Origin: a virus
Taxonomy: Duplodnaviria; Heunggongvirae; Uroviricota; Caudoviricetes
Virus record (IMG/VR): IMGVR_UViG_2579779007_000007
DNA length: 35,575 nucleotides
Strand: one strand, 5' to 3'
Part shown: one piece after another, positions 1 through 34,123 of the stretch
How positions within the stretch are numbered: position 1 is the first letter of the stretch
Layout of the letters: the number at the start of each line of letters is the position of its first letter
Translations under genes and position numbers: made by a program
Notes under the pieces: generated by a model
The model's input: the letters and a program-made list of their open reading frames with translations, nothing else
Database searches by the model: none
Told to the model about the DNA's origin: nothing

Positions 1-21
1 ATGCGAGAGACAGTCGAAATT

Positions 22-351
22 ATGCGTTATCCCGTCACTCTTACACCCGCGCCGGAAGGCGGTTATATGGTTTCTTTTGTGGATATCCCTGAAGCGTTGA
101 CCCAGGGCGAAACTGTCGCTGAAGCGATGGAAGCGGCAAAAGATGCTTTACTGACCGCATTTGATTTTTATTTTGAAGATAACGAGCTTATCCCGTTACC
201 TTCGCCATTAAATAGTCATGATCACTTTATTGAAGTACCTTTGAGCGTCGCCTCTAAGGTATTGCTGTTAAATGCTTTTTTACAGTCAGAAATCACTCAG
301 CAAGAGTTAGCCAGGCGAATTGGCAACCCGAATGTAGTCAACCCAAAATAA
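22..351 (+). CDS. hicB: HicB-family antitoxin, N-terminal domain only; ORF ends after 8 unrelated codons, apparently disrupted by the AT-rich element
   Basis: Translation MRYPVTLTPAPEGGYMVSFVDIPEALTQGETVAEAMEAAKDALL... matches the enterobacterial HicB N-domain as recalled. Start of an Xre-like HTH (ITQQELARRIG) is cut off near nt 331. GC drops from about 50% to about 35% after nt 340. Confidence 0.6.
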   Translation: MRYPVTLTPAPEGGYMVSFVDIPEALTQGETVAEAMEAAKDALLTAFDFYFEDNELIPLPSPLNSHDHFIEVPLSVASKVLLLNAFLQSEITQQELARRIGNPNVVNPK

Positions 352-583
352 CTAAAAATTTTGCAATAAAAAGCCCCATCTCAAGGACAAGGCTTAGAAA
401 TCAACTAATTAACATAGTTTCCAGATCAAAGGGGTTATAATGAAATCCATAAAAGGTGATCTGTTAGCTGGGTGCTGTATATCTAAAATGTTACTTAATT
501 AATATCGTTCTGGTGGTTAGCTTTCATCGCATCCCACCATTTTTGAGTAATCTTCATGCTATTGAATTGCATCATTTCACCTC

Positions 584-4295: not shown

Positions 4296-4330
4296 AAAAG
4301 CCTCCTTGCGCCAACAGGGAGGCTTTTTTA
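4296..4330. terminator. bidirectional terminator-like hairpin between the 60-aa and 333-aa genes
   Basis: AAAA-GCCTCC-ttgcgccaacag-GGAGGC-TTTTTT: an A-run before and a T-run after the stem. Confidence 0.4.
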
Positions 4331-4367
4331 TTTTTAAAGCCATCATATAATTCTCAGTGAAAGGTTA

Positions 4368-4550
4368 TTACCAGACCTCGGCGGTAATCTTTACTTTAAT
4401 ATCATACTTCTTTAAGAGTTTGTGGAAGGTTGATTGATCAATACCTTCACCTTTAAACCATTCACCCATCACTACATCAGGTGTCAGTTCAAAATAACGC
4501 TTTGCCATTTCTAAAACGATTTCACGAGTGAACTTAACAGGTCGTGCCAT
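4368..4550 (-). CDS. small HTH DNA-binding protein (60 aa)
   Basis: Strong RBS AGGAGGA. Pattern FTREIVLEMAKRY...GIDQSTFHKLLKKY resembles IS/phage-type HTH. Confidence 0.5.
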   Translation of the reverse strand: MARPVKFTREIVLEMAKRYFELTPDVVMGEWFKGEGIDQSTFHKLLKKYDIKVKITAEVW

Positions 4551-4907
4551 CTTATATCCTCCTAAATCTGGAATAATGATTTCTTAAAAAAGAGCTTTTC
4601 GCTCTGAACAATTCTATTTATAAAATGTTTTTCGAAAAACCCTGTAAAACCACTGTATATCCGATCAGTGGGAGCACGAATTGCTAAAGAGAAGATTAAT
4701 AATTAATCAATTCGTACATTATTCAATCGAATAAGCACTGTATGTTTAGCCAGTTCTGTATGAATTAACAGTGAGTCAGGGGATTTTCAGAAGTGAACAA
4801 TCATTTCATGCATGTATTTATACACGAAAAAATCTTGCGTATCATCAATATGGGGATTGTTTCGAAAATTTCAACCCCTACCAACGAGAAAAAGCATAAA
4901 ATAATCC

Positions 4908-4921
4908 TTGACAGTTGTCAA
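4908..4921. promoter_or_regulatory. palindrome TTGACA-gt-TGTCAA (back-to-back -35-like hexamers or operator)
   Basis: Perfect 6-bp arms. A leftward -10 candidate TATGCT lies 17 bp away on the minus strand, positioned to drive the 4550-to-2991 cassette. Confidence 0.3.
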
Positions 4922-4946
4922 TACACTTGATCTAAGCGAGAAATGA

Positions 4947-4969
4947 CTATCAAAATTTTTGTGTGAAAA
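4947..4969. repeat. direct repeat copy 1: CTATCAAAATTTTTG-TGTGAAAA
   Basis: Near-identical 22-23 bp copy at 5096..5117. A DnaA-box-like TTATCAACC sits between them at 4983..4991. Confidence 0.5.
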
Positions 4970-5095
4970 TGGCGGATAACGATTATCAACCTTTATAACC
5001 TATTATAGCACGGCGACCTTTTGATAATTCTTTTTAAATCATGCATTTACGGCGGTTTTTGGTGATTTTCTGGTTAAATAATATACAAGAATTTT

Positions 5096-5117
5096 CTATC
5101 AAAATTTTTGATGAAAA
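5096..5117. repeat. direct repeat copy 2: CTATCAAAATTTTTG-ATGAAAA
   Basis: See copy 1. This copy directly abuts the iteron array. Confidence 0.5.
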
Positions 5118-5118
5118 A

Positions 5119-5239
5119 CCTACACTACAAACCTACGCTTTAAAGGGATTGGCCTACACTACACTAGCCAGTAAACCTACACTATAACACCCTCAAACCT
5201 ACACTATGAAACCTACACACCTACACTAACCCTACACTT
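5119..5239. repeat. iteron array: about 8 direct copies of CCTACAC(T/G)(A/T) in about 120 bp
   Basis: Copies start at 5119, 5132 (variant), 5153, 5176, 5198, 5212, 5220 and 5231. Several spacings are 21-23 bp. Preceded by an AT-rich tract, inside a 1.27-kb stretch with no ORF of 60 aa or more. Confidence 0.7.
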
Positions 5240-5584
5240 CAATCTCATAAGTGTATGATCTTGAAAGACATTTCACCCCACAGACCATAGAATATAAAAT
5301 TCGAACTAACGTTCTCCTTTTTGCTCGTTTTCTCTCACTACGTTCAAGAAAGATCTCGCAAAAAGAATACGGCGTAGCCGTGCGCGAAGCGCCCATCAAC
5401 ACCTTCTAAGACCTGCAAGCAGGATTCGAAAGGGATTGGATAGTTCGCTTCGCTCACGTTCACGCCTACGGCGTTCACTCGCTTTTGAAAGGATTTTCTT
5501 AGAAAGGGATTTAATACTAGTTACTAACTGATTCTAGTAAACGAACGAAGTGAGTAACAATCACTTTCTAGAAAGGTATTGGTT

Positions 5585-5613
5585 ATCCCTTCGGGATTGC
5601 AACCTTCGGTTGC
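5585..5613 (+). other. two tandem GC-stem hairpins with TTC(G) loops (candidate structured RNA element)
   Basis: ATCCC-ttc-GGGAT immediately followed by GCAACC-ttc-GGTTGC. No clean T-run follows. Confidence 0.35.
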
Positions 5614-5817
5614 TAAATTGCTTCCTGATTATTATTTCTCCAAAAGAAAGATTCTTATATTCTAAAGATACTTCTTCGTTTTGATGATGATTTAATCAAA
5701 CCATGAAGGAGGGCTTTAGCCCGACTGAATACAATCACCTTTCATAATAACAAGAATTTTCTCTTTATAAATAATAGTGAACTTACTTGATTCACTTTCT
5801 TTTAGAGGATTTCCACT

Positions 5818-6285
5818 ATGAACCATAAAATGACTACCACTACTCCTTTTATCCTTCTGGGTCTGGATTCTGATAGCTTCCACAATGACAAGTTAATGAA
5901 GATGTTCCGTGAACGTGGTTATAACATCCTTTTCAACTCTGATGAATCCCATTTCTCTAGTGCATGGTATGCGTTTTACCGTAATAAGAAGCCGACCATT
6001 GTAGTTAACTGCTTCACCGATGAAGAACGCTTAAAGTACCAGGATCTACCAGCAATTATTGTCCGTGATGATCTGCCGTTTCAAGTCCGTTCCGGTGACA
6101 TTGATCTGGGTAGCTTCGTTACTGTCTATGAACTGGATGAAGCAATGTTTAACTACGGCAAAGAAACCGCTCAGGAAGCCCCAGAAGAAGATGAACAAGA
6201 CGAAGATGACGACGACTACGCACCAATCTGTTTTTCTTCTCAGAATGGCTTCTACGGTTACGACGAAGGCTTAGATATGCTGTAA
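5818..6285 (+). CDS. hypothetical acidic protein (155 aa)
   Basis: RBS AGAGGA. N-terminal alpha/beta-like segment (PFILLGLDSDSF...), then a strongly acidic stretch EEDEQDEDDDDY. Confidence 0.55.
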   Translation: MNHKMTTTTPFILLGLDSDSFHNDKLMKMFRERGYNILFNSDESHFSSAWYAFYRNKKPTIVVNCFTDEERLKYQDLPAIIVRDDLPFQVRSGDIDLGSFVTVYELDEAMFNYGKETAQEAPEEDEQDEDDDDYAPICFSSQNGFYGYDEGLDML

Positions 6286-6320
6286 GTTAGGTCAACCCTT
6301 TGGCGTCTTGTCAAGGGGTA

Positions 6321-6349
6321 TTGACAAAAATTTCTGACTTTTTTATGAT
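6321..6349 (+). promoter_or_regulatory. sigma70-like promoter TTGACA-17 bp-TATGAT
   Basis: Consensus -35, 17-bp spacer, 5/6 match at -10. An inverted TTGTCAA lies just upstream (6309..6315). Positioned to drive the 6408 ORF and the Rha gene. Confidence 0.5.
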
Positions 6350-6407
6350 TGTCGCACTTGACAACTTTAAACCTATTTGACCTAGATTTGTAAATGGGAT
6401 GTTAATT

Positions 6408-6554
6408 ATGAACACTACTAAGAAAATTGATGGACGTAAAACCCCGAACCGCAAACCGTGGACCCCAAACCTGAATTTCTCAATGGTTGACTTCCATGAA
6501 CGCCAGCGTCGCATTCAAGAAGAAATTGATCGCGCGATTGCTGAATCTAAATGA
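6408..6554 (+). CDS. small basic protein (48 aa), hypothetical
   Basis: Manual translation MNTTKKIDGRKTPNRKPWTPNLNFSMVDFHERQRRIQEEIDRAIAESK. Its start region resembles the Rha start (ttaattatgaaYact...). Confidence 0.3.
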   Translation: MNTTKKIDGRKTPNRKPWTPNLNFSMVDFHERQRRIQEEIDRAIAESK

Positions 6555-6580
6555 GATAAAAACTTCTTATAAATAAAATT

Positions 6581-6602
6581 GTTCCGGTGATGCTGCCGGA
6601 AC
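6581..6602 (+). promoter_or_regulatory. perfect hairpin GTTCCGG-tgatgctg-CCGGAAC just upstream of the Rha RBS
   Basis: 7-bp perfect stem with no T-run after it, so possibly an attenuator, processing site or protein-binding palindrome. Confidence 0.3.
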
Positions 6603-6651
6603 TAGGAGGATCAATATCATTATCGCAAAACCGTTTAAGGGGAATTTAATT

Positions 6652-7458
6652 ATGAATACTGTTACTGCTATGAATACTACTAAAACCGCTTCCGTGTCTC
6701 TGGTTGTTGATAACACCAAACCGCTGACCATGTCTTCTCGTCAGATCGCTGAATTTACCGGAAAGAAACACTTTCACGTAAAACGCGACATTCGCGAAAT
6801 GCTGATTACCTTAGAATTAGATGAATCCAAATTTGGATGCATCTTTTTTGATCAATATGGACGCGAGCAAACAGAATATCACTTGAATGAAGAACTGACT
6901 CTGACTCTTGTCACTGGTTACAATATCCAGATGCGAAACGCGGTTATTCAGGAATGGAAGCGACTGAAAGAAGAAAATGAAAAACTTCGCTCTACTCCGG
7001 TTAACCCGTATGCAGACTTTGAAGAAACCGACTGGATCGAACTGGCGTTAAAGAAAACTCGCGAGAACAAGCAACTGATTACTCTACATCATCGCAAATC
7101 CGTAGATAGCCATTCAATGACGCGTTTGTTAGGTGCTAAAAAGGGCGCTACGAAGGTTAAAGAAGCACTGACGGCCTTACGTACTGCCGGATACATTGAG
7201 CGCGTCTATGATGAAAATAACAAGCCGTGTGGGTATGTTGCTAATGATTCCGCGATACCGTTTTGCAGCATGAACGCTCACTATCAACTTTCTTTCACTG
7301 TTGATGTGCTTCCGGTGCTGGTTGAATTGGGTGTTCTTGAAGAAGAACAAAAAGCAGCTTTGACACTGCCTAAACCGAATAACACGATCATGATTCAGAA
7401 TAAAGCGACTATCATGATTCGTCAGAATGTTGGATCGCTAGAACACTTCGGACTGTAA
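6652..7458 (+). CDS. rha: Rha-family phage regulatory protein (antirepressor-like)
   Basis: 268 aa. N-terminal SSRQIAEFTGKKHFHVKRDIREM matches the Rha-domain signature. RBS AAGGGG. Confidence 0.7.
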   Translation: MNTVTAMNTTKTASVSLVVDNTKPLTMSSRQIAEFTGKKHFHVKRDIREMLITLELDESKFGCIFFDQYGREQTEYHLNEELTLTLVTGYNIQMRNAVIQEWKRLKEENEKLRSTPVNPYADFEETDWIELALKKTRENKQLITLHHRKSVDSHSMTRLLGAKKGATKVKEALTALRTAGYIERVYDENNKPCGYVANDSAIPFCSMNAHYQLSFTVDVLPVLVELGVLEEEQKAALTLPKPNNTIMIQNKATIMIRQNVGSLEHFGL

Positions 7459-7466
7459 TAATTTTT

Positions 7467-7491
7467 GCCCCTGAATTTCAGGGGCTTTTTT
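7467..7491 (+). terminator. intrinsic terminator after rha
   Basis: GCCCCTGAA-(a)-TTCAGGGGC followed by TTTTTT. Confidence 0.7.
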
Positions 7492-7503
7492 GTATCTGTA
7501 GGT

Positions 7504-7532
7504 ATAAAAAAAGCCAACCCCGAAGGATTGGC
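7504..7532 (-). terminator. intrinsic terminator for the minus-strand 85-aa gene
   Basis: On the minus strand: GGCCAATCC-ttcg-GGGTTGGC followed by seven U. Convergent with the rha terminator. Confidence 0.5.
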
Positions 7533-7540
7533 CTAGAGAA

Positions 7541-7798
7541 TCAAATTCCTGTTGCTTCTACCATTTCACCATCAACCTGAACAAAGAATTTCAAATCAAC
7601 TTTATGAAGGGATTTGTATAGCTGGGCTATGGATAAGCCATGCTCATTTAATACCCGCTCTTTGTTCTCTTTACCTTTCGGTGCTTGATAGTACGCTTTT
7701 ACAATCGCTGCCAGTTGTTCACGATTAAAACGGGCAGGGCGACCGCGAGTAGCTTTAGTAGTCATAGTCATTTTCTCCAAATTAAAGTGAATGTTCAC
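7541..7798 (-). CDS. small DNA-binding protein (85 aa), HTH-like
   Basis: TRGRPARFNREQLAAIVKAYY...GLSIAQLYKSL pattern. Starts 2 nt after the stop of the upstream 201-aa gene. Confidence 0.5.
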   Translation of the reverse strand: MNIHFNLEKMTMTTKATRGRPARFNREQLAAIVKAYYQAPKGKENKERVLNEHGLSIAQLYKSLHKVDLKFFVQVDGEMVEATGI

Positions 7799-7800
7799 CT

Positions 7801-8406
7801 TTATTTAGAGGACTTACATTTTATCGGAAAAAGTTCTCCATCGTCAACCGACATAAAGAACTCTGCCTTAATCCCGTACTTCTTCAACCGTGAATAATAT
7901 GTACCCCGACTAATATCAACCTTGCGCAGCACTTCGAAGAACTCTTTAGGATTCCTGTAATAGTGGCTATATCGCACGTTAGCGAGTTCTACAAACAATT
8001 CCCTTGTATCACCATAGCCTTTCTTGAAAGCCACGTTACGATAGCGTGTAATGGCATGATTCAATCTCTTCTGTTTAAGCACTTCCCTGATCGGCTTCCA
8101 CTGCAACCGATAGATAGGACCGTCATCAATGCGATAATAACGCTTGATATCAAAATCAAACCAATCTCGGACTCTCCGAAACTCTGTATGTGATGTTCTA
8201 TGCTTCTTAAAGAAGTTGTGAACGTCTCTATAGCCATTATCACGGTAAAATTCTATTAAAATCTCTTTCGCTTCCTCACGGCTAAACCCAGATGTTGTGT
8301 AATCGGTCTTTAAGTGCTTATGTTTTACTGGCAAACGATATTCATGATCGGTACAACAAGACAAGGCTAATTCTACTTCATCTCTTTGTTGCTGATTAAT
8401 TAGCAT
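7801..8406 (-). CDS. hypothetical basic protein (201 aa) with C-terminal HTH-like segment
   Basis: Rich in R/K/Y. C-terminal ISRGTYYSRLKKYG is HTH-like. Divergent from the large terminase gene. Confidence 0.55.
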   Translation of the reverse strand: MLINQQQRDEVELALSCCTDHEYRLPVKHKHLKTDYTTSGFSREEAKEILIEFYRDNGYRDVHNFFKKHRTSHTEFRRVRDWFDFDIKRYYRIDDGPIYRLQWKPIREVLKQKRLNHAITRYRNVAFKKGYGDTRELFVELANVRYSHYYRNPKEFFEVLRKVDISRGTYYSRLKKYGIKAEFFMSVDDGELFPIKCKSSK

Positions 8407-12534: not shown

Positions 12535-14547
12535 ATGCTTAAATTTCGCCGCGATCTTAACGGTTACGGTGGAGTTATTAATGAAGGGCATAACGATCAA
12601 TACGAATTTGAAATTGCTTTCTCAAGTACACAGCCTTATCAGCGCCAATTTTGGGATGAGCAAAATCAAGAAATGGTGGTATTAGATGAAATTCTGGTAC
12701 ATACACCGGAAGCGGTTGATCTGTCTCGTCTGAATAATAACGCTCCGTTGCTGTTCAATCACAATTTCGATAATCACATTGGTGTAGTTTGTAACGCTCG
12801 AATCGATGCGGATAACGTAGGTCGTGCTCTGGTTAAGTTCTCCAAGCATGGGACTTTGGCTAATGATATTCGTAATAAAGTCATTGAAGGTACGATGGAA
12901 AAAATTTCGGTCGGCTATGACATTAAAGAATATCACATCGACTACACCAAAGGACAATTGATTGTTACTAAGTGGGCACCCTATGAACTCTCATTTGTCA
13001 CCGTTCCCGCAGACGATACGGTCGGTTTAAATCGCTCTCTAAATACTATCACAGTTAATTTGGAGGCTAAACGCGATATGACTAAAGAACAAATCGAAGA
13101 AATCAAAGAAGAACAAGAACCCGCTCAGGTTGAAGAAACTCCGGTAGAAGAAAATAAAGAACCGGAAGTTGAAGAAACTCAAGAGCGCCAAGTTGAAGAG
13201 AATAAAGAAGATGAAAATCTCGAAGACGGAAAAGACGCTGAACATCCTGAAAGTGTTGATGATGATAGTTCAACTGTTCGGGAAACAGAAGAAGTAAAAG
13301 AAGAACGTGAAGCTGCTCCGGTTGAAGAAGAAAAAACCGAGGAAGTGGCTGAACGTTCCGAAGAAGACGAATTAGAAATTCGCGAAATTGCACGCGAGTT
13401 AAATATTAACGAAGACGATGAAGAATTTAAACGCGCATTGGCAAATAAAGAAATTACGCCGGAAGCATTCCGCACTAAGGCACTAAATAACATTACCAAT
13501 GCTCAACGTAATAACGAACAAATTAATAAGGAACAAATCATGGAAAAAACTTTCGATCTTAATAACGTAATCCGCTCCCTGGTAGATGGCGACGTGCTCG
13601 GCGCTAACGAAGCTGAATATTCCGCAATGGCTGCTACTGCAACTATGCAGCGTGGTCGTGCTGCTCGTGGTGGCTCTGTATTCGTTCCGGCTGCTGCTAT
13701 GCGTGCTGCTGCTGATGGCAACACCAAAGCTAATCTGGTTGCTATCACTGACGAAAAACTGATGACTGAATCCTACATCGAAATGCTGATGCCTCAGAGT
13801 GTTTTAGGCCGCCTCGGGGTGACTGTTTATAGTGGCTTGACTTCTCCGACCGCTATTCCAAAAATGACTAAATCCAGCGTTGACGCTTTCGGATTCGTAG
13901 ATGAAAATGGCGCTGCCCCCGAGTCACATGCGGAATTTTCGAACGTGAAACTGTCTCCGAAAACTTTTGCTGGTGGCAACCCGATCAGCCGTCAGTCGCT
14001 GAAAACCGTTCCGGGCATCGCTACCCTGATCACCGATCACATTAACAAATCTGTTCGGATCAAACTGGAACAACTGATTCTGTCTGATAAAGAAAATGCT
14101 CGTGGTCCGGCTGGTCTGGTTAAGCAACTGGTAGACGCTAGCCGCGTTACCAAGAAAGCTGCTTTCTCTTATAAAGATTTCCTCAAGGAGATTGCTCAGC
14201 TTACGGACGCTGGCGTTCCTGCTCAGGCGATCAAGTTTGCGATGAGCGGTGCAACTGCTGCTGAACTGGAATCTACCCTGAAAGATAACGGCGTTTCCGG
14301 TTATATCATCGAAAACGGCAAACTGGCTGGTTACGAAGTAGTTACTTCTGGCGTTATTCCGGCAGATCACATCGTTCTGGGTGACTTCTCCGGTATTACC
14401 ATCGGTGAGTGGGGCGGTCTGGAACTTGACATGGATCTAACTACATATCGGGATCGTGGGGCGGTAGTGCCTAGAATCTTTGTAGATTTGGACTACGTTG
14501 TAGCACAGCCGGAAGCGCTGAAAGTTCTTCACATCTCCGCTGACTGA
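12535..14547 (+). CDS. fused prohead protease (HK97/S78-like) - acidic scaffold-like linker - HK97-fold major capsid protein
   Basis: 670 aa. Residues 1-170 match the S78 prohead protease pattern, residues about 180-330 are E-rich, the C-terminal 340 aa are HK97-MCP-like. Ends with TGA. Confidence 0.8.
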   Translation: MLKFRRDLNGYGGVINEGHNDQYEFEIAFSSTQPYQRQFWDEQNQEMVVLDEILVHTPEAVDLSRLNNNAPLLFNHNFDNHIGVVCNARIDADNVGRALVKFSKHGTLANDIRNKVIEGTMEKISVGYDIKEYHIDYTKGQLIVTKWAPYELSFVTVPADDTVGLNRSLNTITVNLEAKRDMTKEQIEEIKEEQEPAQVEETPVEENKEPEVEETQERQVEENKEDENLEDGKDAEHPESVDDDSSTVRETEEVKEEREAAPVEEEKTEEVAERSEEDELEIREIARELNINEDDEEFKRALANKEITPEAFRTKALNNITNAQRNNEQINKEQIMEKTFDLNNVIRSLVDGDVLGANEAEYSAMAATATMQRGRAARGGSVFVPAAAMRAAADGNTKANLVAITDEKLMTESYIEMLMPQSVLGRLGVTVYSGLTSPTAIPKMTKSSVDAFGFVDENGAAPESHAEFSNVKLSPKTFAGGNPISRQSLKTVPGIATLITDHINKSVRIKLEQLILSDKENARGPAGLVKQLVDASRVTKKAAFSYKDFLKEIAQLTDAGVPAQAIKFAMSGATAAELESTLKDNGVSGYIIENGKLAGYEVVTSGVIPADHIVLGDFSGITIGEWGGLELDMDLTTYRDRGAVVPRIFVDLDYVVAQPEALKVLHISAD

Positions 14548-16364: not shown

Positions 16365-19300
16365 ATGCAATCAATCCAATTTAAACGCACACAAACGGCT
16401 GGTAAAAAGCCGACGCCGGAACAATTATCACAGGGTGAGATCGCCTTACAACTGGCGGACCATGTGATTTACACCAAAGACAAAAATAATAACGTAGTCC
16501 AAATTAGTGTTTCTCCAGAAAAACACGCTGAACTTAACACTAAAGTAGACAATAACAAAACTAGCACTGACCGTGTTATTGCTTCCAACAAACAAGAGGC
16601 CGCTAATAATCTGGCTAGTGCTAAAGCTGAACTGAATCAGACTATTACCACGAAAGATACAGCGACCAATAAGCGCATTGATGCTACCAACACCACTGTT
16701 AGTAACTTAACCCAGACAGTTACGGCAAATAAAACCGATGCCGACACTAAGATCAATAACCTTACGGGGACCGTATCTGCGAATAAGACCGCAATTGAAA
16801 GAACCGTTGCCGCAAACAAATCTGATGCAGATAGCAAACATGCAGCTTTAACGAAAACGGTCACTGACAATAACACCGCGATTAACAACAAGGTTAATAC
16901 CACTAACACCAACGTTAGCAACTTAACTAAAACTGTTACTGCAAATAAAACCGATGCAGATAACAAAATTTCTAGCTTAACTAGCGCGGTTGCAGCTAAC
17001 AAGACAGCGATCGAAAAGACTGTTTCCGACAATAAGAAAGACGCGGATACTAAGATTACCAATCTTACTGGCACTGTTAATAGCAACCATACCGCAATTA
17101 ACAACAAGGTAGACCAGAATAAATCTTCTACTGATGCCGCAATTGCAGCCGCTAACAAACGAATTGATGGTATTGAAGGTAGCAATGATGCTCTTTACAT
17201 CAAGAAGAATACCAATACTAAGCATGGTGGGTATCTGTTAAGCAAGACAGCTAACTATCTGGAAGACCAGACATCACGAGATCTTAACTACTTTGGTGCT
17301 TTCCGTACCAATGGTCAAGATGGACTCATGGATCTAACTCTTAACGTTCCTCACTCTTCCGGTAAAGCGCACGGTCGCGGATTTACTTTCCGTTATGCGT
17401 CTGGTGGATCTCGTGTTGAAACCTATGGTTTTGATAGAGAAGGACAGAAGAACTTTAGCTATAAGATGTATCACGAAGGTGATAAACCGACTCCTGCTGA
17501 AATTGGCGCATATACCAAAGGCGAAATTGATAAGATGTTTATTAAAAATGTCACAATGTCTGTTCCTTCTGGTAGTGAATCCCGTGCTTATTTCAAGATT
17601 GCTACGGCTACGATCCCACAAAATGGTCGTATGGTAATGCTTCGTATCTTCGGTGGTAATGGTTATAACGTTAACTCCTATGATCAGGTTGATTTCCTTG
17701 AAATTGTTATCCGTAGTGGTAACGATAGACCTAAAGGTGTTAGTGTTGCTGCATATCGTCGAAATGCTCTTAACGTTCATCAAGTATTTGCGGTTAATAC
17801 TTCCGGTGATAACTACGACATTTACGTTAACTACGGTCGTTATACTGATAACGTTATTGTCGAATATGGTAAGACTAGCGGTGTTTCACTGACTGTTCAT
17901 GACACCCCAGATATGACTAACGTTAAGCCGTCTACTGGTGTTACAGATGGACGTGTTATTACAATGTTCAATACCGAAAACAAGGCCGGAACGTTGATGT
18001 TTGATAATAACGGTCAGGGAACATATGATATTGTCAGTTTGAATAACGATTCAGGTACTGGTAAAAAATATCTGCGTAAATTCCGTAGTAAAGCCGCAGA
18101 AACAATCTGGCATGAAACTGTTCAAGGTAACGTATATCGTTTAGCGACTGGCACTACCGATTCTAGCGAAGTTCTACGAATCACTGGTCGCACTATGTAT
18201 ACTGGTAAAGCTGTTTTTGATGCCGGATCTAATACTATTCGTATGCAGCGACCGAATGGTCAAAGTAACTATTTGGAATATTGGGATAACCGTAACGGTG
18301 CAAATAAACGTCAAGGTTGGATCGGTTATGGAAATGCCGATACTAACGCTATGCAGATGTATAACGATAGCGGTACTAACAATATTGGCTTAGAACAAAG
18401 CGGTCAAATCTCTCTGAATACTGGATCTACTAAAGTAGTTTATACCAACGGCGAGTATGTATCTGCTAACTCAAATGCATTCCGTATGATTTACGGTAAC
18501 TATGGTGCATTCTGGCGTAATGATGGTCAAAACGTATATTTTCTGTCTACTGCCGAAAATGATAAATTTGGTGGTTGGAACGGCTATCGTCCATTCATTT
18601 ACAATCTGGGTAGCGGTAATGTTACTTTGGGTGGTGATGGTAACGAAGGTGCATTAGTCTTAGAACGTGCAAGTCGTGCAGCTCGTTTTGCTGGAAACGC
18701 TTTCATCAAAGGTCAACATTTAACACTTGATGCTGGTGCTGGACAATCCCGCGACTATTTCCGTTTTAACCATTGGGGTGATAGCAATAACGCTCGCGAC
18801 AACATTCTATATCTCGAAGACAGCAAAGGACGCCATTTCAGCACCGAACGTAATATGGCTACAGGTGCATTAAAAGCATACTTCTTAGGAGATCTTGAAG
18901 TTGCTGGTCAAATGCGATGGGGTAAGAATACCGGACAATCTAGCTTCAATATTCGTGCATGGGGTAATGATACTCGTAAACAAGTATTAGAATGCGCAGA
19001 TGAAAGCGGCTGGCATTTCTACACACAGCGTGCTGGCGGTCCTGATACTACCGCAATCGAGTTTAGCGTAAACGGTAAAATTAACGCTCCCCGACTGTCT
19101 ATTAGTCAGGATGCAACCATTCCTAAGTTTAATAGCGGTTTTGGTGTTGGTGTTGCTAACGGATTGGGTGGAAATTCTATTGTTTTAGGCGATAGTGATA
19201 CTGGATTTAAACAAAACGGTGATGGTGTCCTTGATACCTACGCTAATAACGTTAATGTTGTTCGCCATACGTCAGGCGGTGTTACATTTAACCGTCGTGT

Positions 19301-19973
19301 TGTTGTTGCTAACAAAAATGGTTTAGGTTATTCCGATATCTCTGATGTAACTCGTGACCGTGCTCCATTCCTGGTTAACATGGATAGTATTAAGGGGTCT
19401 GCTGCATATTTCCCGATCATCGCTGGTTACAGTAACTTAGGTGATGTTGGTTATCGTCAGTCCTTCGAGTTTGGTTGGACGGGTAGCGGGTCGAATAGCA
19501 CATGGCGTACTGGTATTATCCGTATGCGTGGCGATAACGCCAACGGGCAGCAAGCACGCTGGGAATTTACTATGGATGGTGATTTTACCTGCCCCCGTAA
19601 CGGTAGCTTTAACGATGTTTACATTCGCTCTGACTCCCGTTTGAAGATTAACAAGGAAGAATTACAGGACGGCGCATTAGAGAAAGTAAACTCCCTGAAA
19701 GTCTACACCTACGATAAAGTTAAATCTCTTTCAGATGACACAGTGGTTAAACGCGAAGTAGGTATTATTGCTCAGGATCTGGAAGAAGTGTTGCCGGAAG
19801 CAGTAGGTATTCAATCCACCGAAGATCCAGAACAACCGGAAGCAATTAAGACTATTTCTAACTCTGCTGTTAATGCCTTGATTATTAAAGCGATTCAGGA
19901 AATGGACGCCAAATATCAAGCTAAGATTGAAGCATTGACTAAAGAGATTGCCGAACTCAAAGCAACTAAATAA
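16365..19973 (+). CDS. long tail fibre with C-terminal S74 intramolecular-chaperone domain
   Basis: 1202 aa. Repetitive shaft, KPTPAEIGAY motif, C-terminal YIRSDSRLKINKEEL... matching the autoproteolytic chaperone domain of T5 pb1 and endosialidase-type fibres. Confidence 0.85.
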   Translation: MQSIQFKRTQTAGKKPTPEQLSQGEIALQLADHVIYTKDKNNNVVQISVSPEKHAELNTKVDNNKTSTDRVIASNKQEAANNLASAKAELNQTITTKDTATNKRIDATNTTVSNLTQTVTANKTDADTKINNLTGTVSANKTAIERTVAANKSDADSKHAALTKTVTDNNTAINNKVNTTNTNVSNLTKTVTANKTDADNKISSLTSAVAANKTAIEKTVSDNKKDADTKITNLTGTVNSNHTAINNKVDQNKSSTDAAIAAANKRIDGIEGSNDALYIKKNTNTKHGGYLLSKTANYLEDQTSRDLNYFGAFRTNGQDGLMDLTLNVPHSSGKAHGRGFTFRYASGGSRVETYGFDREGQKNFSYKMYHEGDKPTPAEIGAYTKGEIDKMFIKNVTMSVPSGSESRAYFKIATATIPQNGRMVMLRIFGGNGYNVNSYDQVDFLEIVIRSGNDRPKGVSVAAYRRNALNVHQVFAVNTSGDNYDIYVNYGRYTDNVIVEYGKTSGVSLTVHDTPDMTNVKPSTGVTDGRVITMFNTENKAGTLMFDNNGQGTYDIVSLNNDSGTGKKYLRKFRSKAAETIWHETVQGNVYRLATGTTDSSEVLRITGRTMYTGKAVFDAGSNTIRMQRPNGQSNYLEYWDNRNGANKRQGWIGYGNADTNAMQMYNDSGTNNIGLEQSGQISLNTGSTKVVYTNGEYVSANSNAFRMIYGNYGAFWRNDGQNVYFLSTAENDKFGGWNGYRPFIYNLGSGNVTLGGDGNEGALVLERASRAARFAGNAFIKGQHLTLDAGAGQSRDYFRFNHWGDSNNARDNILYLEDSKGRHFSTERNMATGALKAYFLGDLEVAGQMRWGKNTGQSSFNIRAWGNDTRKQVLECADESGWHFYTQRAGGPDTTAIEFSVNGKINAPRLSISQDATIPKFNSGFGVGVANGLGGNSIVLGDSDTGFKQNGDGVLDTYANNVNVVRHTSGGVTFNRRVVVANKNGLGYSDISDVTRDRAPFLVNMDSIKGSAAYFPIIAGYSNLGDVGYRQSFEFGWTGSGSNSTWRTGIIRMRGDNANGQQARWEFTMDGDFTCPRNGSFNDVYIRSDSRLKINKEELQDGALEKVNSLKVYTYDKVKSLSDDTVVKREVGIIAQDLEEVLPEAVGIQSTEDPEQPEAIKTISNSAVNALIIKAIQEMDAKYQAKIEALTKEIAELKATK
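16640..17170 (+). repeat. intragenic tandem repeats encoding two ~69-aa shaft repeats
   Basis: Repeated NLT.TVTANKTDAD.KI..LT..V.ANKTAIE.TV. The low-complexity repeats create the spurious antisense ORF 16637..17185. Confidence 0.6.
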
Positions 19974-20674: not shown

Positions 20675-21181
20675 ATGGCAAATGTCGTTAAAGTTCCTGG
20701 CTGGATCGGGTCATCTGCTGTATCGGTGACGGGTAAGCGATGGATGAAAGAAGCACTAACAGCTTTAAAAGTTCCGGCTCCGCGTAATATGTCGGCAATG
20801 GCTGGTCGTGGTATGGATACGGTTGTAGCTACTGCTGCATGGTCTACTTCATTGGGTAATAACTGGGGGGTAACTGCTTCAAACTATCCTGTTTCCGGTA
20901 TGCAAAGCAAAGGATCTATGGAGAACCCCGAAAACGTGGGCGTAGGGCGTCTGATTGGCGTTATCGTTGGTCAATTCAATGGCGGTACTCCTACTATGGC
21001 TGTATATCTCCAGAACGGTAGAGCGGGGAATATAACCGTTAATTTGGGTGGTGCTACTGTCACTGTTCCTTATAACAGTATGCAAAGTGGTTTTCATTAC
21101 TATTGGTTAAGCAATCCTCCGGCTGCTTTCCTCAATAACATTAAGAAGACTGGCACTAAGCAGACTTTGAAAATCTCTTAA
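20675..21181 (+). CDS. hypothetical tail-associated protein (168 aa)
   Basis: ORF with RBS GGAG, located between tail tube and chaperone genes. Confidence 0.5.
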   Translation: MANVVKVPGWIGSSAVSVTGKRWMKEALTALKVPAPRNMSAMAGRGMDTVVATAAWSTSLGNNWGVTASNYPVSGMQSKGSMENPENVGVGRLIGVIVGQFNGGTPTMAVYLQNGRAGNITVNLGGATVTVPYNSMQSGFHYYWLSNPPAAFLNNIKKTGTKQTLKIS

Positions 21182-32394: not shown

Positions 32395-34074
32395 TTAAAT
32401 TCCAAATTCTTGTAATGGACCTGGTATTTCTTCTTCTGGTTTCCAGTTCTTATCTGTCAGCATGTCTAAACATGGATGCAGAACAAGCCCGTTACTCTCC
32501 AGAATCTGCCTATCATTGATAGTCTTCAAATCAACGAAGATCCGGCCTTTCCTCGGTCCTCTTGAATTTTCTATTACAACTCTCTGGGTCTTGCCATCGA
32601 TGTATTCCAGTACAAACAAGTTTTTGTACTTGTCAATCCTGCTACACCCGATCCGTTTTAGAGCTTGCTTAATCTTAAACCGGACCTTAATGCGATCCTC
32701 GTTGTAAACATCTTCTAAATCAAATTCTGCGAGCTTCTCCCAGCCTTGAGAGTCAACAGAATACATTTCCTCTTCTGCCATCTTAAGTTGATTGTAGAGT
32801 GTTTCACGCTCGCTATTGAGGGTAGTAATCTGATCGGCTAGCTCCTTCGTTGCTCCTGTCATAGCAGAAAGGGTAATCAGGTTATCAATCTTGCGTGATA
32901 TTTCATCAATCTGTACTTTCAAAGCCGGAACCGGATTAGCCTTATCTTCAGCAATCCAGATTTTATCAGCCAGCAATTGCAATACAGCTTTCTCTAATTG
33001 GTCGCCGCGAAAACTCCAGTTTGTATGCACACATTCAATACGACTAGAGCGCATTGCATCGCATGAATAACGATATTGGTTAGGCCGTCTGTTTGTTCCT
33101 TTCACCTTAACCATAGCGGAACCGCAATGTTCACATTTCAATAGACCAACACCACTAAGCAAGGGAATAGGTTTAGCTTCTTCTTTGTCTCCAAAGTTAC
33201 ATGCTCTAACACCAATGCTTTTCTTAAGGTGATAAAACTCAGCGTCATCTAGCACACGAGGATAATAATCCTTTAACTCATACTTAACGCCATCTACAGA
33301 GATTTCCTTGATACCAATCAAAGCGCGGGTATGGAACAACCTTTCAATCATTGCCCGTGACCAGTTTGAATGCCTCTTGTGACTTGCGGCTGGTGGTGGT
33401 GTGTATGTCGCGTTAAGGTGATCCAGTATCTCGGCGGTTGACCGTCCATTCCTGCGTAATTCCACAACTTCCTGAACAATAGGGAAGAAGACCGGATGAG
33501 GAAGCACATAACCAGATGTGGTATCAGTCCACCACATATTCTTTCCAATTTCCTCGATTGCAACAGCCGGATTTTGTGGATTTTCTTGATGAGCTTTAAT
33601 CTTAATCAGTGCGCTTGAGTTAGTACGATTGCGCTTAGTCTGGCTTTCCTCATTACCACGGATGAATAAAAGGATGGAGAACATCAGGTCCATCGGGTTA
33701 GCGGTAACAGTATCAAGCGAGTAGATCTTGTTATCCATGCCAGTAACAATGGTTATCCCCCTACGGATGATTGAAAGGAATAACTCCTGCGCACTGACAA
33801 TATCGGCACGGGATAAACGGTCCAAGTTTTCGATGAATAGCCAGCTACCAACAGGAACGGATCTACCTATTGCATCAAGGAAACGAGATAGCGCCCCTGT
33901 TTTGGAGTTAGCACCCTTAAACGCAGATACACCCAGATCCTGATAATCATTTACCAGTTCAAGGTCATACTTTACCGCAATCTCTCTAGCCATCCTGATT
34001 TGTCGTTCATAACTCGAACCATCATTCTGACGCATAGACGAGAAGCGAATATACGAATACAGTTTAGTTTTCAT
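32395..34074 (-). CDS. large serine recombinase (candidate integrase)
   Basis: About 560 aa. N-terminal resolvase-type motif YIRFSSMRQ, recombinase domain, zinc-ribbon cysteines (CEHCGSAM...YRYSC), C-terminal coiled coil. ATG start at 34074; the ORF track uses a TTG at 34089. Confidence 0.85.
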   Translation of the reverse strand: MKTKLYSYIRFSSMRQNDGSSYERQIRMAREIAVKYDLELVNDYQDLGVSAFKGANSKTGALSRFLDAIGRSVPVGSWLFIENLDRLSRADIVSAQELFLSIIRRGITIVTGMDNKIYSLDTVTANPMDLMFSILLFIRGNEESQTKRNRTNSSALIKIKAHQENPQNPAVAIEEIGKNMWWTDTTSGYVLPHPVFFPIVQEVVELRRNGRSTAEILDHLNATYTPPPAASHKRHSNWSRAMIERLFHTRALIGIKEISVDGVKYELKDYYPRVLDDAEFYHLKKSIGVRACNFGDKEEAKPIPLLSGVGLLKCEHCGSAMVKVKGTNRRPNQYRYSCDAMRSSRIECVHTNWSFRGDQLEKAVLQLLADKIWIAEDKANPVPALKVQIDEISRKIDNLITLSAMTGATKELADQITTLNSERETLYNQLKMAEEEMYSVDSQGWEKLAEFDLEDVYNEDRIKVRFKIKQALKRIGCSRIDKYKNLFVLEYIDGKTQRVVIENSRGPRKGRIFVDLKTINDRQILESNGLVLHPCLDMLTDKNWKPEEEIPGPLQEFGI

Positions 34075-34081
34075 ACCATTT

Positions 34082-34123
34082 CCAAACAAAAACGCCCCTA
34101 CCGCGTATTATAACGATAGGGGC
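34082..34123 (-). terminator. minus-strand terminator upstream of the recombinase
   Basis: On the minus strand: GCCCCTATCG-loop-CGGTAGGGGC followed by GUUUUUGUUUGG. The loop contains TATAAT. Confidence 0.4.

Follow-up and report, generated by a model that had tools for sequence, protein, structure and literature searches.

The split hicB gene at the left end

The window analysed here, which is the whole stretch of 35,575 nucleotides, opens on the plus strand with a hicB′ open reading frame (1–351; 116 aa in its longest-ORF form, confirmed in the window) that carries HicB residues 1–101, then NPNVVNPK and a stop. The HicB start as annotated and crystallised (MRYPV...) falls at window base 22, and from this start the stub comprises 101 native and eight new residues, its tail reading ...ARRIG before the eight unrelated codons, as an earlier note on this DNA had described. 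The part belonging to chromosomal hicB (22–324, plus strand) runs through the N-terminal domain, which neutralises HicA, and into the HTH as far as G101. Escherichia coli K-12 hicB together with its 21 upstream bases matches window 1–326 with two mismatches only, both differences in hicB being silent, and the identity is lost from base 327 onward, where phage DNA is found.

Against Pfam, the 1–351 ORF gave a HicB_lk_antitox match (PF15919, E 5.5e-08, residues 10–74) above the curated cut-off and no HTH match, and intact K-12 HicB gave HicB_lk_antitox at residues 3–67 and HTH_3 at residues 88–134. This Pfam match and the K-12 match over 1–326 bear out the earlier identification of a truncated HicB. 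The break follows G101 (K-12 numbering) and lies inside the HTH_3 domain, in the turn of the HTH; the note was right that the DNA-binding part is lost, but the cut is within HTH_3 and not before it. When the HTH helices are assigned by reading the protein against the usual HTH pattern, the stub keeps the helix ‘TQQELARRI’ and the turn glycine and lacks the second (recognition) helix, the rest of HTH_3 and the dimerising beta-strand that follows the HTH. Compared with the K-12 HicB antitoxin (b1438; PDB 6HPB, 6HPC, 6U0I), the stub is protein-identical over residues 1–101 and shares the N-terminal HicB fold, whereas residues 102–138 are absent and NPNVVNPK stands in their place. GC content is 44.5% in 1–326, 35.6% in 327–1000 and 41.5% in the whole element; the drop to about 35% had been reported correctly, the value of about 50% before the junction had not. 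The junction was placed by homology with thousands of genomes and not by composition, and chance is therefore no issue.

The right end and the limits of the window

The attR site lies outside the window, and its sequence was taken from related genomes. Among complete genomes, that of E. coli CE0007a, of bovine origin from New Zealand, is closest to the window: there are 23 differences over 35,575 positions, 16 in hicB′ (114–315, about 200 bp) and seven in the 35-kb prophage. These counts suggest that the two prophages were acquired separately, and the window's strain can be read as carrying practically the CE0007a prophage beside a different hicB allele. Upstream of hicB′ in CE0007a are hicA, yncJ and rlhA, and the order yncJ–hicA–hicB–ydcR, which lies beyond the window, is seen in CE0007a, in other lysogens and in K-12. 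The displaced hicB 3′ end (117 nt) starts in CE0007a 39 nt past the right end of the window and adjoins ydcR, as in K-12. Joining window 22–326 to the sequence right of attR gives a HicB identical to the 138 aa of K-12.

The whole element, 35,293 bp in length, runs 44 nt past the window, whose last phage gene (35303–35575, minus strand) leaves the attR junction and the hicB 3′ remnant just outside. About 28 IMG/VR proviral contigs carry this integrase, and most of them share the gene boundary at which the window stops; three (L008, L030 and L033) continue into the hicB 3′ end and show the same junction as CE0007a. The limits of the window coincide with the first ATG of the hicB′ ORF (position 1) and the start codon of the last phage gene (position 35575), and IMG/VR proviral contigs of 35.0–35.6 kb share these ends. 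The window appears to be a provirus call whose ends were set by gene boundaries, with 326 host bases included and the last 44 bases of the element left out.

Attachment sites and crossover

The attL junction reads …GCGAATTGGCAA on one side and CCCGAATGTAG… on the other, attR correspondingly …GATATTTGGCAA and ACCTAAACAGG…, and the reconstructed attP junction …TACATGATATTTGGCAACCCGAATGTAGTC…. Comparison of attL, attR and attB maps the breakpoint to TTGGCAA (320–326), which is common to attB and attP. Junction comparisons and dyad analysis place the P′ arm of attP (CCCGAATGTAGTCAACCCAAAATAAC) at 327–352, and this arm gives the last base of the stub's codon 102, seven further codons and the TAA stop (349–351). 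The att core shared by serine integrase sites is usually tiny; the matching core that the earlier note had expected is present, but only as a 2-bp crossover inside the 7 bp shared.

We infer that the crossover dinucleotide is AA at 325–326, because the junctions of sister prophages inserted in ycdX share only AA with their target and because the dyad of the reconstructed attP centres there. About AA, 18 of 26 dyad positions match, a value reached by none of 20,000 shuffles; in a register test AA scored 16/24, the adjacent CA 10/24 and the other seven shifts 4–7/24. In the ycdX sister prophages of UTME-9 and GN4741, attP and target agree at the exchange point in AA alone. The attR copy in other lysogens is TTAGGCAA, TTAGTGAA or TTAGGGAA and attL stays TTGGCAA, which marks the repeat as belonging to attP and not as duplicated target.

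IMG/VR and metagenome contigs were each searched for an excised or free attP, once with an exact 30-mer and once with a degenerate 34-mer; no such form was found, and a control search with the attL pattern found six proviral contigs. A sigma-70-like hexamer pair (TTGGCA, 18-nt spacer, CAAAAT) at 320–349 (plus strand) spans attL and faces the prophage; it matches at 9 of 12 positions, and such sites are no commoner here than in shuffled sequence.

The prophage body and its relatives

The prophage body (327–35575) was characterized from the RefSeq annotation of the near-identical CE0007a prophage and from PHROGs matches. It holds a full set of phage structural genes, and among its genes are those for small and large terminase, portal, capsid, tail tube, tail fibre, tail tip, an endolysin-like peptidase and a Rha-type regulator. 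Just inside attL, at 584–1363 on the minus strand, comes the first phage gene, which encodes an LprI-family (lysozyme-inhibitor-like) protein and is probably an accessory gene carried by the prophage. It has about 80–87% DNA identity to a gene of RB49-group T4-like phages (PHROG 14799) and is likely shared between temperate and virulent phages. A terminator-like hairpin at 371–395 (minus strand), detected by consensus scan only, lies 3′ of this gene and points towards hicB′. Between 2300 and 8400 the ORFs are mostly small or unassigned, and repressor or replication genes were not recognised there; a Rha/anti-repressor-like gene is located at 6652–7458.

The major capsid family protein (12535–14547, plus strand, 670 aa) has its best isolated-phage match in Escherichia phage DCP80 (141 kb) at 43%, and phiHAP-1 and Rhodobacter phages are among those whose capsid matches at about 30%. 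Part of the tail-fibre gene (16365–19973, plus strand, 1202 aa) matches DNA of the T4-like long tail fibre distal subunit, and the gene 3′ of it (20675–21181, plus strand, 168 aa) is annotated as ‘receptor recognizing protein Gp38’. A T-even-type receptor-binding module appears, from these matches, to be lodged inside a 35-kb temperate phage. By DNA, isolated phages covered at most 9% of the query, the coverage coming from the T4-like tail-fibre and LprI-like genes; by protein, they reached at most about 30% identity for the integrase and 43% for the capsid. No isolated phage close enough to confirm the structure of the free genome was found in the phage collection searched.

One lysogen carries a shorter element (L001, EC7072022BGR, 4330–8307), in which the integrase lies about 2.3 kb from attL, directly after a small-terminase-like gene. 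This element seems to be the prophage with about 30 kb deleted, a remnant that still splits hicB.

Integrase types and target choice

The large serine integrase is encoded on the minus strand at 32398–34074 (559 aa from the annotated start; longest ORF 32395–34089). Its N-terminus includes YIRFSSMRQ, and its Resolvase (PF00239), Recombinase (PF07508) and Zn_ribbon_recom (PF13408) domains all score above the Pfam cut-offs. Large serine integrases that place a prophage within a host gene are known from Listeria A118-type phages (in comK), Bacillus SPbeta (in spsM), Streptomyces phiC31 and mycobacteriophage Bxb1. The element shares with these a Resolvase, Recombinase and Zn-ribbon integrase near one prophage end, a short dyad attP with probable exchange at a central dinucleotide and almost no identity between attP and attB, and a target in coding sequence that excision would rebuild. 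It differs from them in that the target is the antitoxin gene of a toxin–antitoxin module, with the toxin-neutralising domain spared, and in its integrase, for which identity to the integrases of isolated phages in the collection reaches about 30% at most.

Three integrase types were told apart by comparing three representative integrases, the loci concerned being window 32398–34074 (minus strand), L007 14318–15997, L037 7211–8890 and L038 1111–2790. Between the window's integrase and a second hicB-targeting type (ETEC1717) there are 37 residue differences, and 30 of 32 residues specific to the ETEC1717 type fall in the catalytic domain (15–140). The two hicB-targeting types have near-identical Recombinase and Zn-ribbon domains and diverged catalytic domains. 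Integrases that target ycdX are set apart from both hicB types by 38 residues, and 29 of these lie in 196–351, the Recombinase and Zn-ribbon region. The attP is the same or nearly the same across all three types, and target choice tracks the DNA-binding domains of the integrase.

The ycdX sister prophages likewise split their target gene and differ from the hicB prophages in attB. The UTME-9 prophage aligns with 75% of window 325–25000, at 93% identity; its attP equals that of the window's element, GN4741 has a very similar one, and the sister integrases equal the window's integrase in length and are 92% identical to it. The insertion position in ycdX was checked in these two genomes, and the remaining integrases at 92–94% identity are presumed to sit in ycdX as well. 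The presence of prophages at both hicB and ycdX in UTME-9 prompted the idea that ycdX is a fallback when hicB is occupied, which was judged less likely, the ycdX integrases forming a clade of their own. A second match recorded for GN4741, which suggests that hicB is still present there, likewise speaks against the fallback.

Distribution in E. coli

A 301-nt empty-site probe across the K-12 site was run against 5426 complete E. coli genomes and found an uninterrupted hicB site in 5281 of them. The corresponding lysogen probe, 240 nt across the window's attL with at least 80% covered, detected the hicB::phage attL junction in 37 of the same 5426, and integrase DNA was present in 57. The hicB::phage arrangement is a minority insertion at a fixed position. 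A search of open-access text for hicB or ycdX as a phage attachment site returned nothing relevant; the insertion site and the phage family appear undescribed, the mechanism itself being ordinary.

Integration mechanism

Taken together, the locus is best read as a complete 35.3-kb prophage that was integrated inside hicB by its own large serine integrase, hicB being a tolerated landing site, and we put the probability of this reading at about 0.9. On this reading the integrase recombined a dyad-symmetric attP of roughly 50 bp with an attB inside chromosomal hicB, the strands being exchanged at the central AA (window 325–326). The attL product joins hicB codons 1–101 to eight phage-derived codons, with the stop within the attP arm, and the attR product leaves hicB codons 102–138 beside ydcR. 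Precise excision would restore hicB. Integration inside hicB was also what the earlier note had preferred, and each check that it proposed (the exact breakpoint, the displaced hicB 3′ end with an att core, and the intact gene in strains without the element) gives support. Neither of the findings that it named as refuting turned up, for the 3′ remnant is present and the truncated gene occurs in no deposited phage genome.

Consequences for HicAB

The N-terminal domains of HicB proteins neutralise HicA by masking its active site, and in E. coli HicB the HTH binds DNA and the strand after it serves for dimerisation (PMC11594946). The hicAB promoter P2 is repressed by HicB and yields an antitoxin-only product, and loss of the C-terminal domain leaves Yersinia HicB3 able to complex HicA3 (PMC11594946). 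The stub retains the HicA-masking N-terminal domain and is without recognition helix and dimerising strand. With these two elements lost, the stub should no longer repress P2; its synthesis would become constitutive, and neutralisation of HicA could persist (predicted from PMC11594946), which would explain why hicA is intact in most lysogens. A stub that contains only part of the HTH domain may also be unstable.

Among the 35 lysogens listed, hicA is annotated as intact in 27, and the other eight have a pseudogene allele about 22 nt shorter and annotated as frameshifted (e.g. L001 3822–3976). Non-lysogens whose hicB is intact, O104:H4 among them, have the short allele too, and enrichment of hicA pseudogenes in lysogens is unconvincing (8/35 versus roughly 13% of all genomes; rough Fisher p = 0.13, phylogeny-confounded). 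The short allele appears to be inherited with the lineage and not prompted by the prophage, and the intact hicA of most lysogens fits a working stub. The viability of the lysogens is no proof of such a stub, because a full deletion of ydcQ (hicB) is viable in K-12, where it suppresses rpoE lethality and lowers envelope stress responses (PMC2215328).

Alternative explanations

An improbable explanation is that the insertion is a reversible switch from which the phage benefits: lysogeny would make HicB monomeric, non-repressing and still HicA-neutralising, and excision would return the wild type. HicAB, a proposed anti-phage defence, would be rewired or disarmed in the lysogen, or envelope-stress physiology would be altered as it is by hicB deletion. 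The cut does spare the toxin-neutralising domain exactly, removing only the DNA-binding and dimerisation part; the gene is rebuilt exactly; and the site is used by two integrase clades whose catalytic domains have diverged around near-identical DNA-binding domains. Serine integrases commonly land in genes without known benefit, which counts against a switch. A close lineage, moreover, uses ycdX, which has no toxin–antitoxin link, so that target choice looks like a matter of DNA sequence, and hicA pseudogenes are not enriched among lysogens. The genomic contexts of HicA, which suggest a role in defence (PMC10865869), and the lowered envelope stress responses and suppressed rpoE lethality of the ydcQ (hicB) deletion (PMC2215328) are in keeping with a benefit. 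We regard as unlikely the broader proposal that hicB integration is a selected reversible switch and, separately, that the hicB and ycdX integrases are a natural attB-retargeting pair. The simplest view is still that hicB is a tolerated landing site, and not a target chosen for its function.

The alternative raised in the earlier note, namely that hicB′ is borne by the element and acts as an antitoxin decoy against host HicA, can be rejected. The stub does keep the HicA-binding domain, and IMG/VR proviral contigs, like the window, begin with hicB′; those contigs end at gene boundaries, and a terminal hicB′ looks like an effect of boundary calling. Against the decoy, hicB′ lies outside the crossover and the att boundary and is continuous with hicA, yncJ and rlhA upstream; the complementary 3′ half of hicB is at the other end; the hicB′ allele follows the host; and where hicB′ would be, relatives inserted in ycdX that share the P′ arm have ycdX′. 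The truncated gene was found in no deposited phage genome, a search that gave only weak 69% matches to a hypothetical gene in Moraxella phages.

Mu-like transposition with TTGGCAA as a 7-bp target-site duplication has next to no chance of being correct and was rejected on the attR variants (TTAGGCAA, TTAGTGAA, TTAGGGAA): the heptamer is at both ends in CE0007a, but attR varies among lysogens whose attL keeps it, ycdX insertions share only AA, the position is the same in 37 genomes, and the CE0007a RefSeq annotation lists a serine recombinase and no transposase for the element.

Implications

The first 326 bases of the provirus call are host DNA, and the ‘truncated HicB’ is a split chromosomal gene and not a phage gene. 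The gene hicB, and ycdX in the sister lineage, are added to the genes that serve as prophage attachment sites in E. coli, here for a prophage family without an isolated relative in the phage collection searched. The most useful by-product is the set of three integrase clades, which offers a ready comparison for the residues that set attB specificity. If the retargeting proposal were true, roughly 30 residue changes across the Recombinase and Zn-ribbon domains would retarget attB with attP nearly unchanged, a guide to reprogramming serine integrases. If the switch were real, the stub would soak up HicA and so disarm or retune a HicA-based defence or stress module for as long as the phage is resident, and excision would restore the module. 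Lysogens, most of which have an intact toxin gene, are left with an antitoxin from which the repressor half is missing, and so provide a testable case of toxin–antitoxin modules tolerating the loss of autoregulation.
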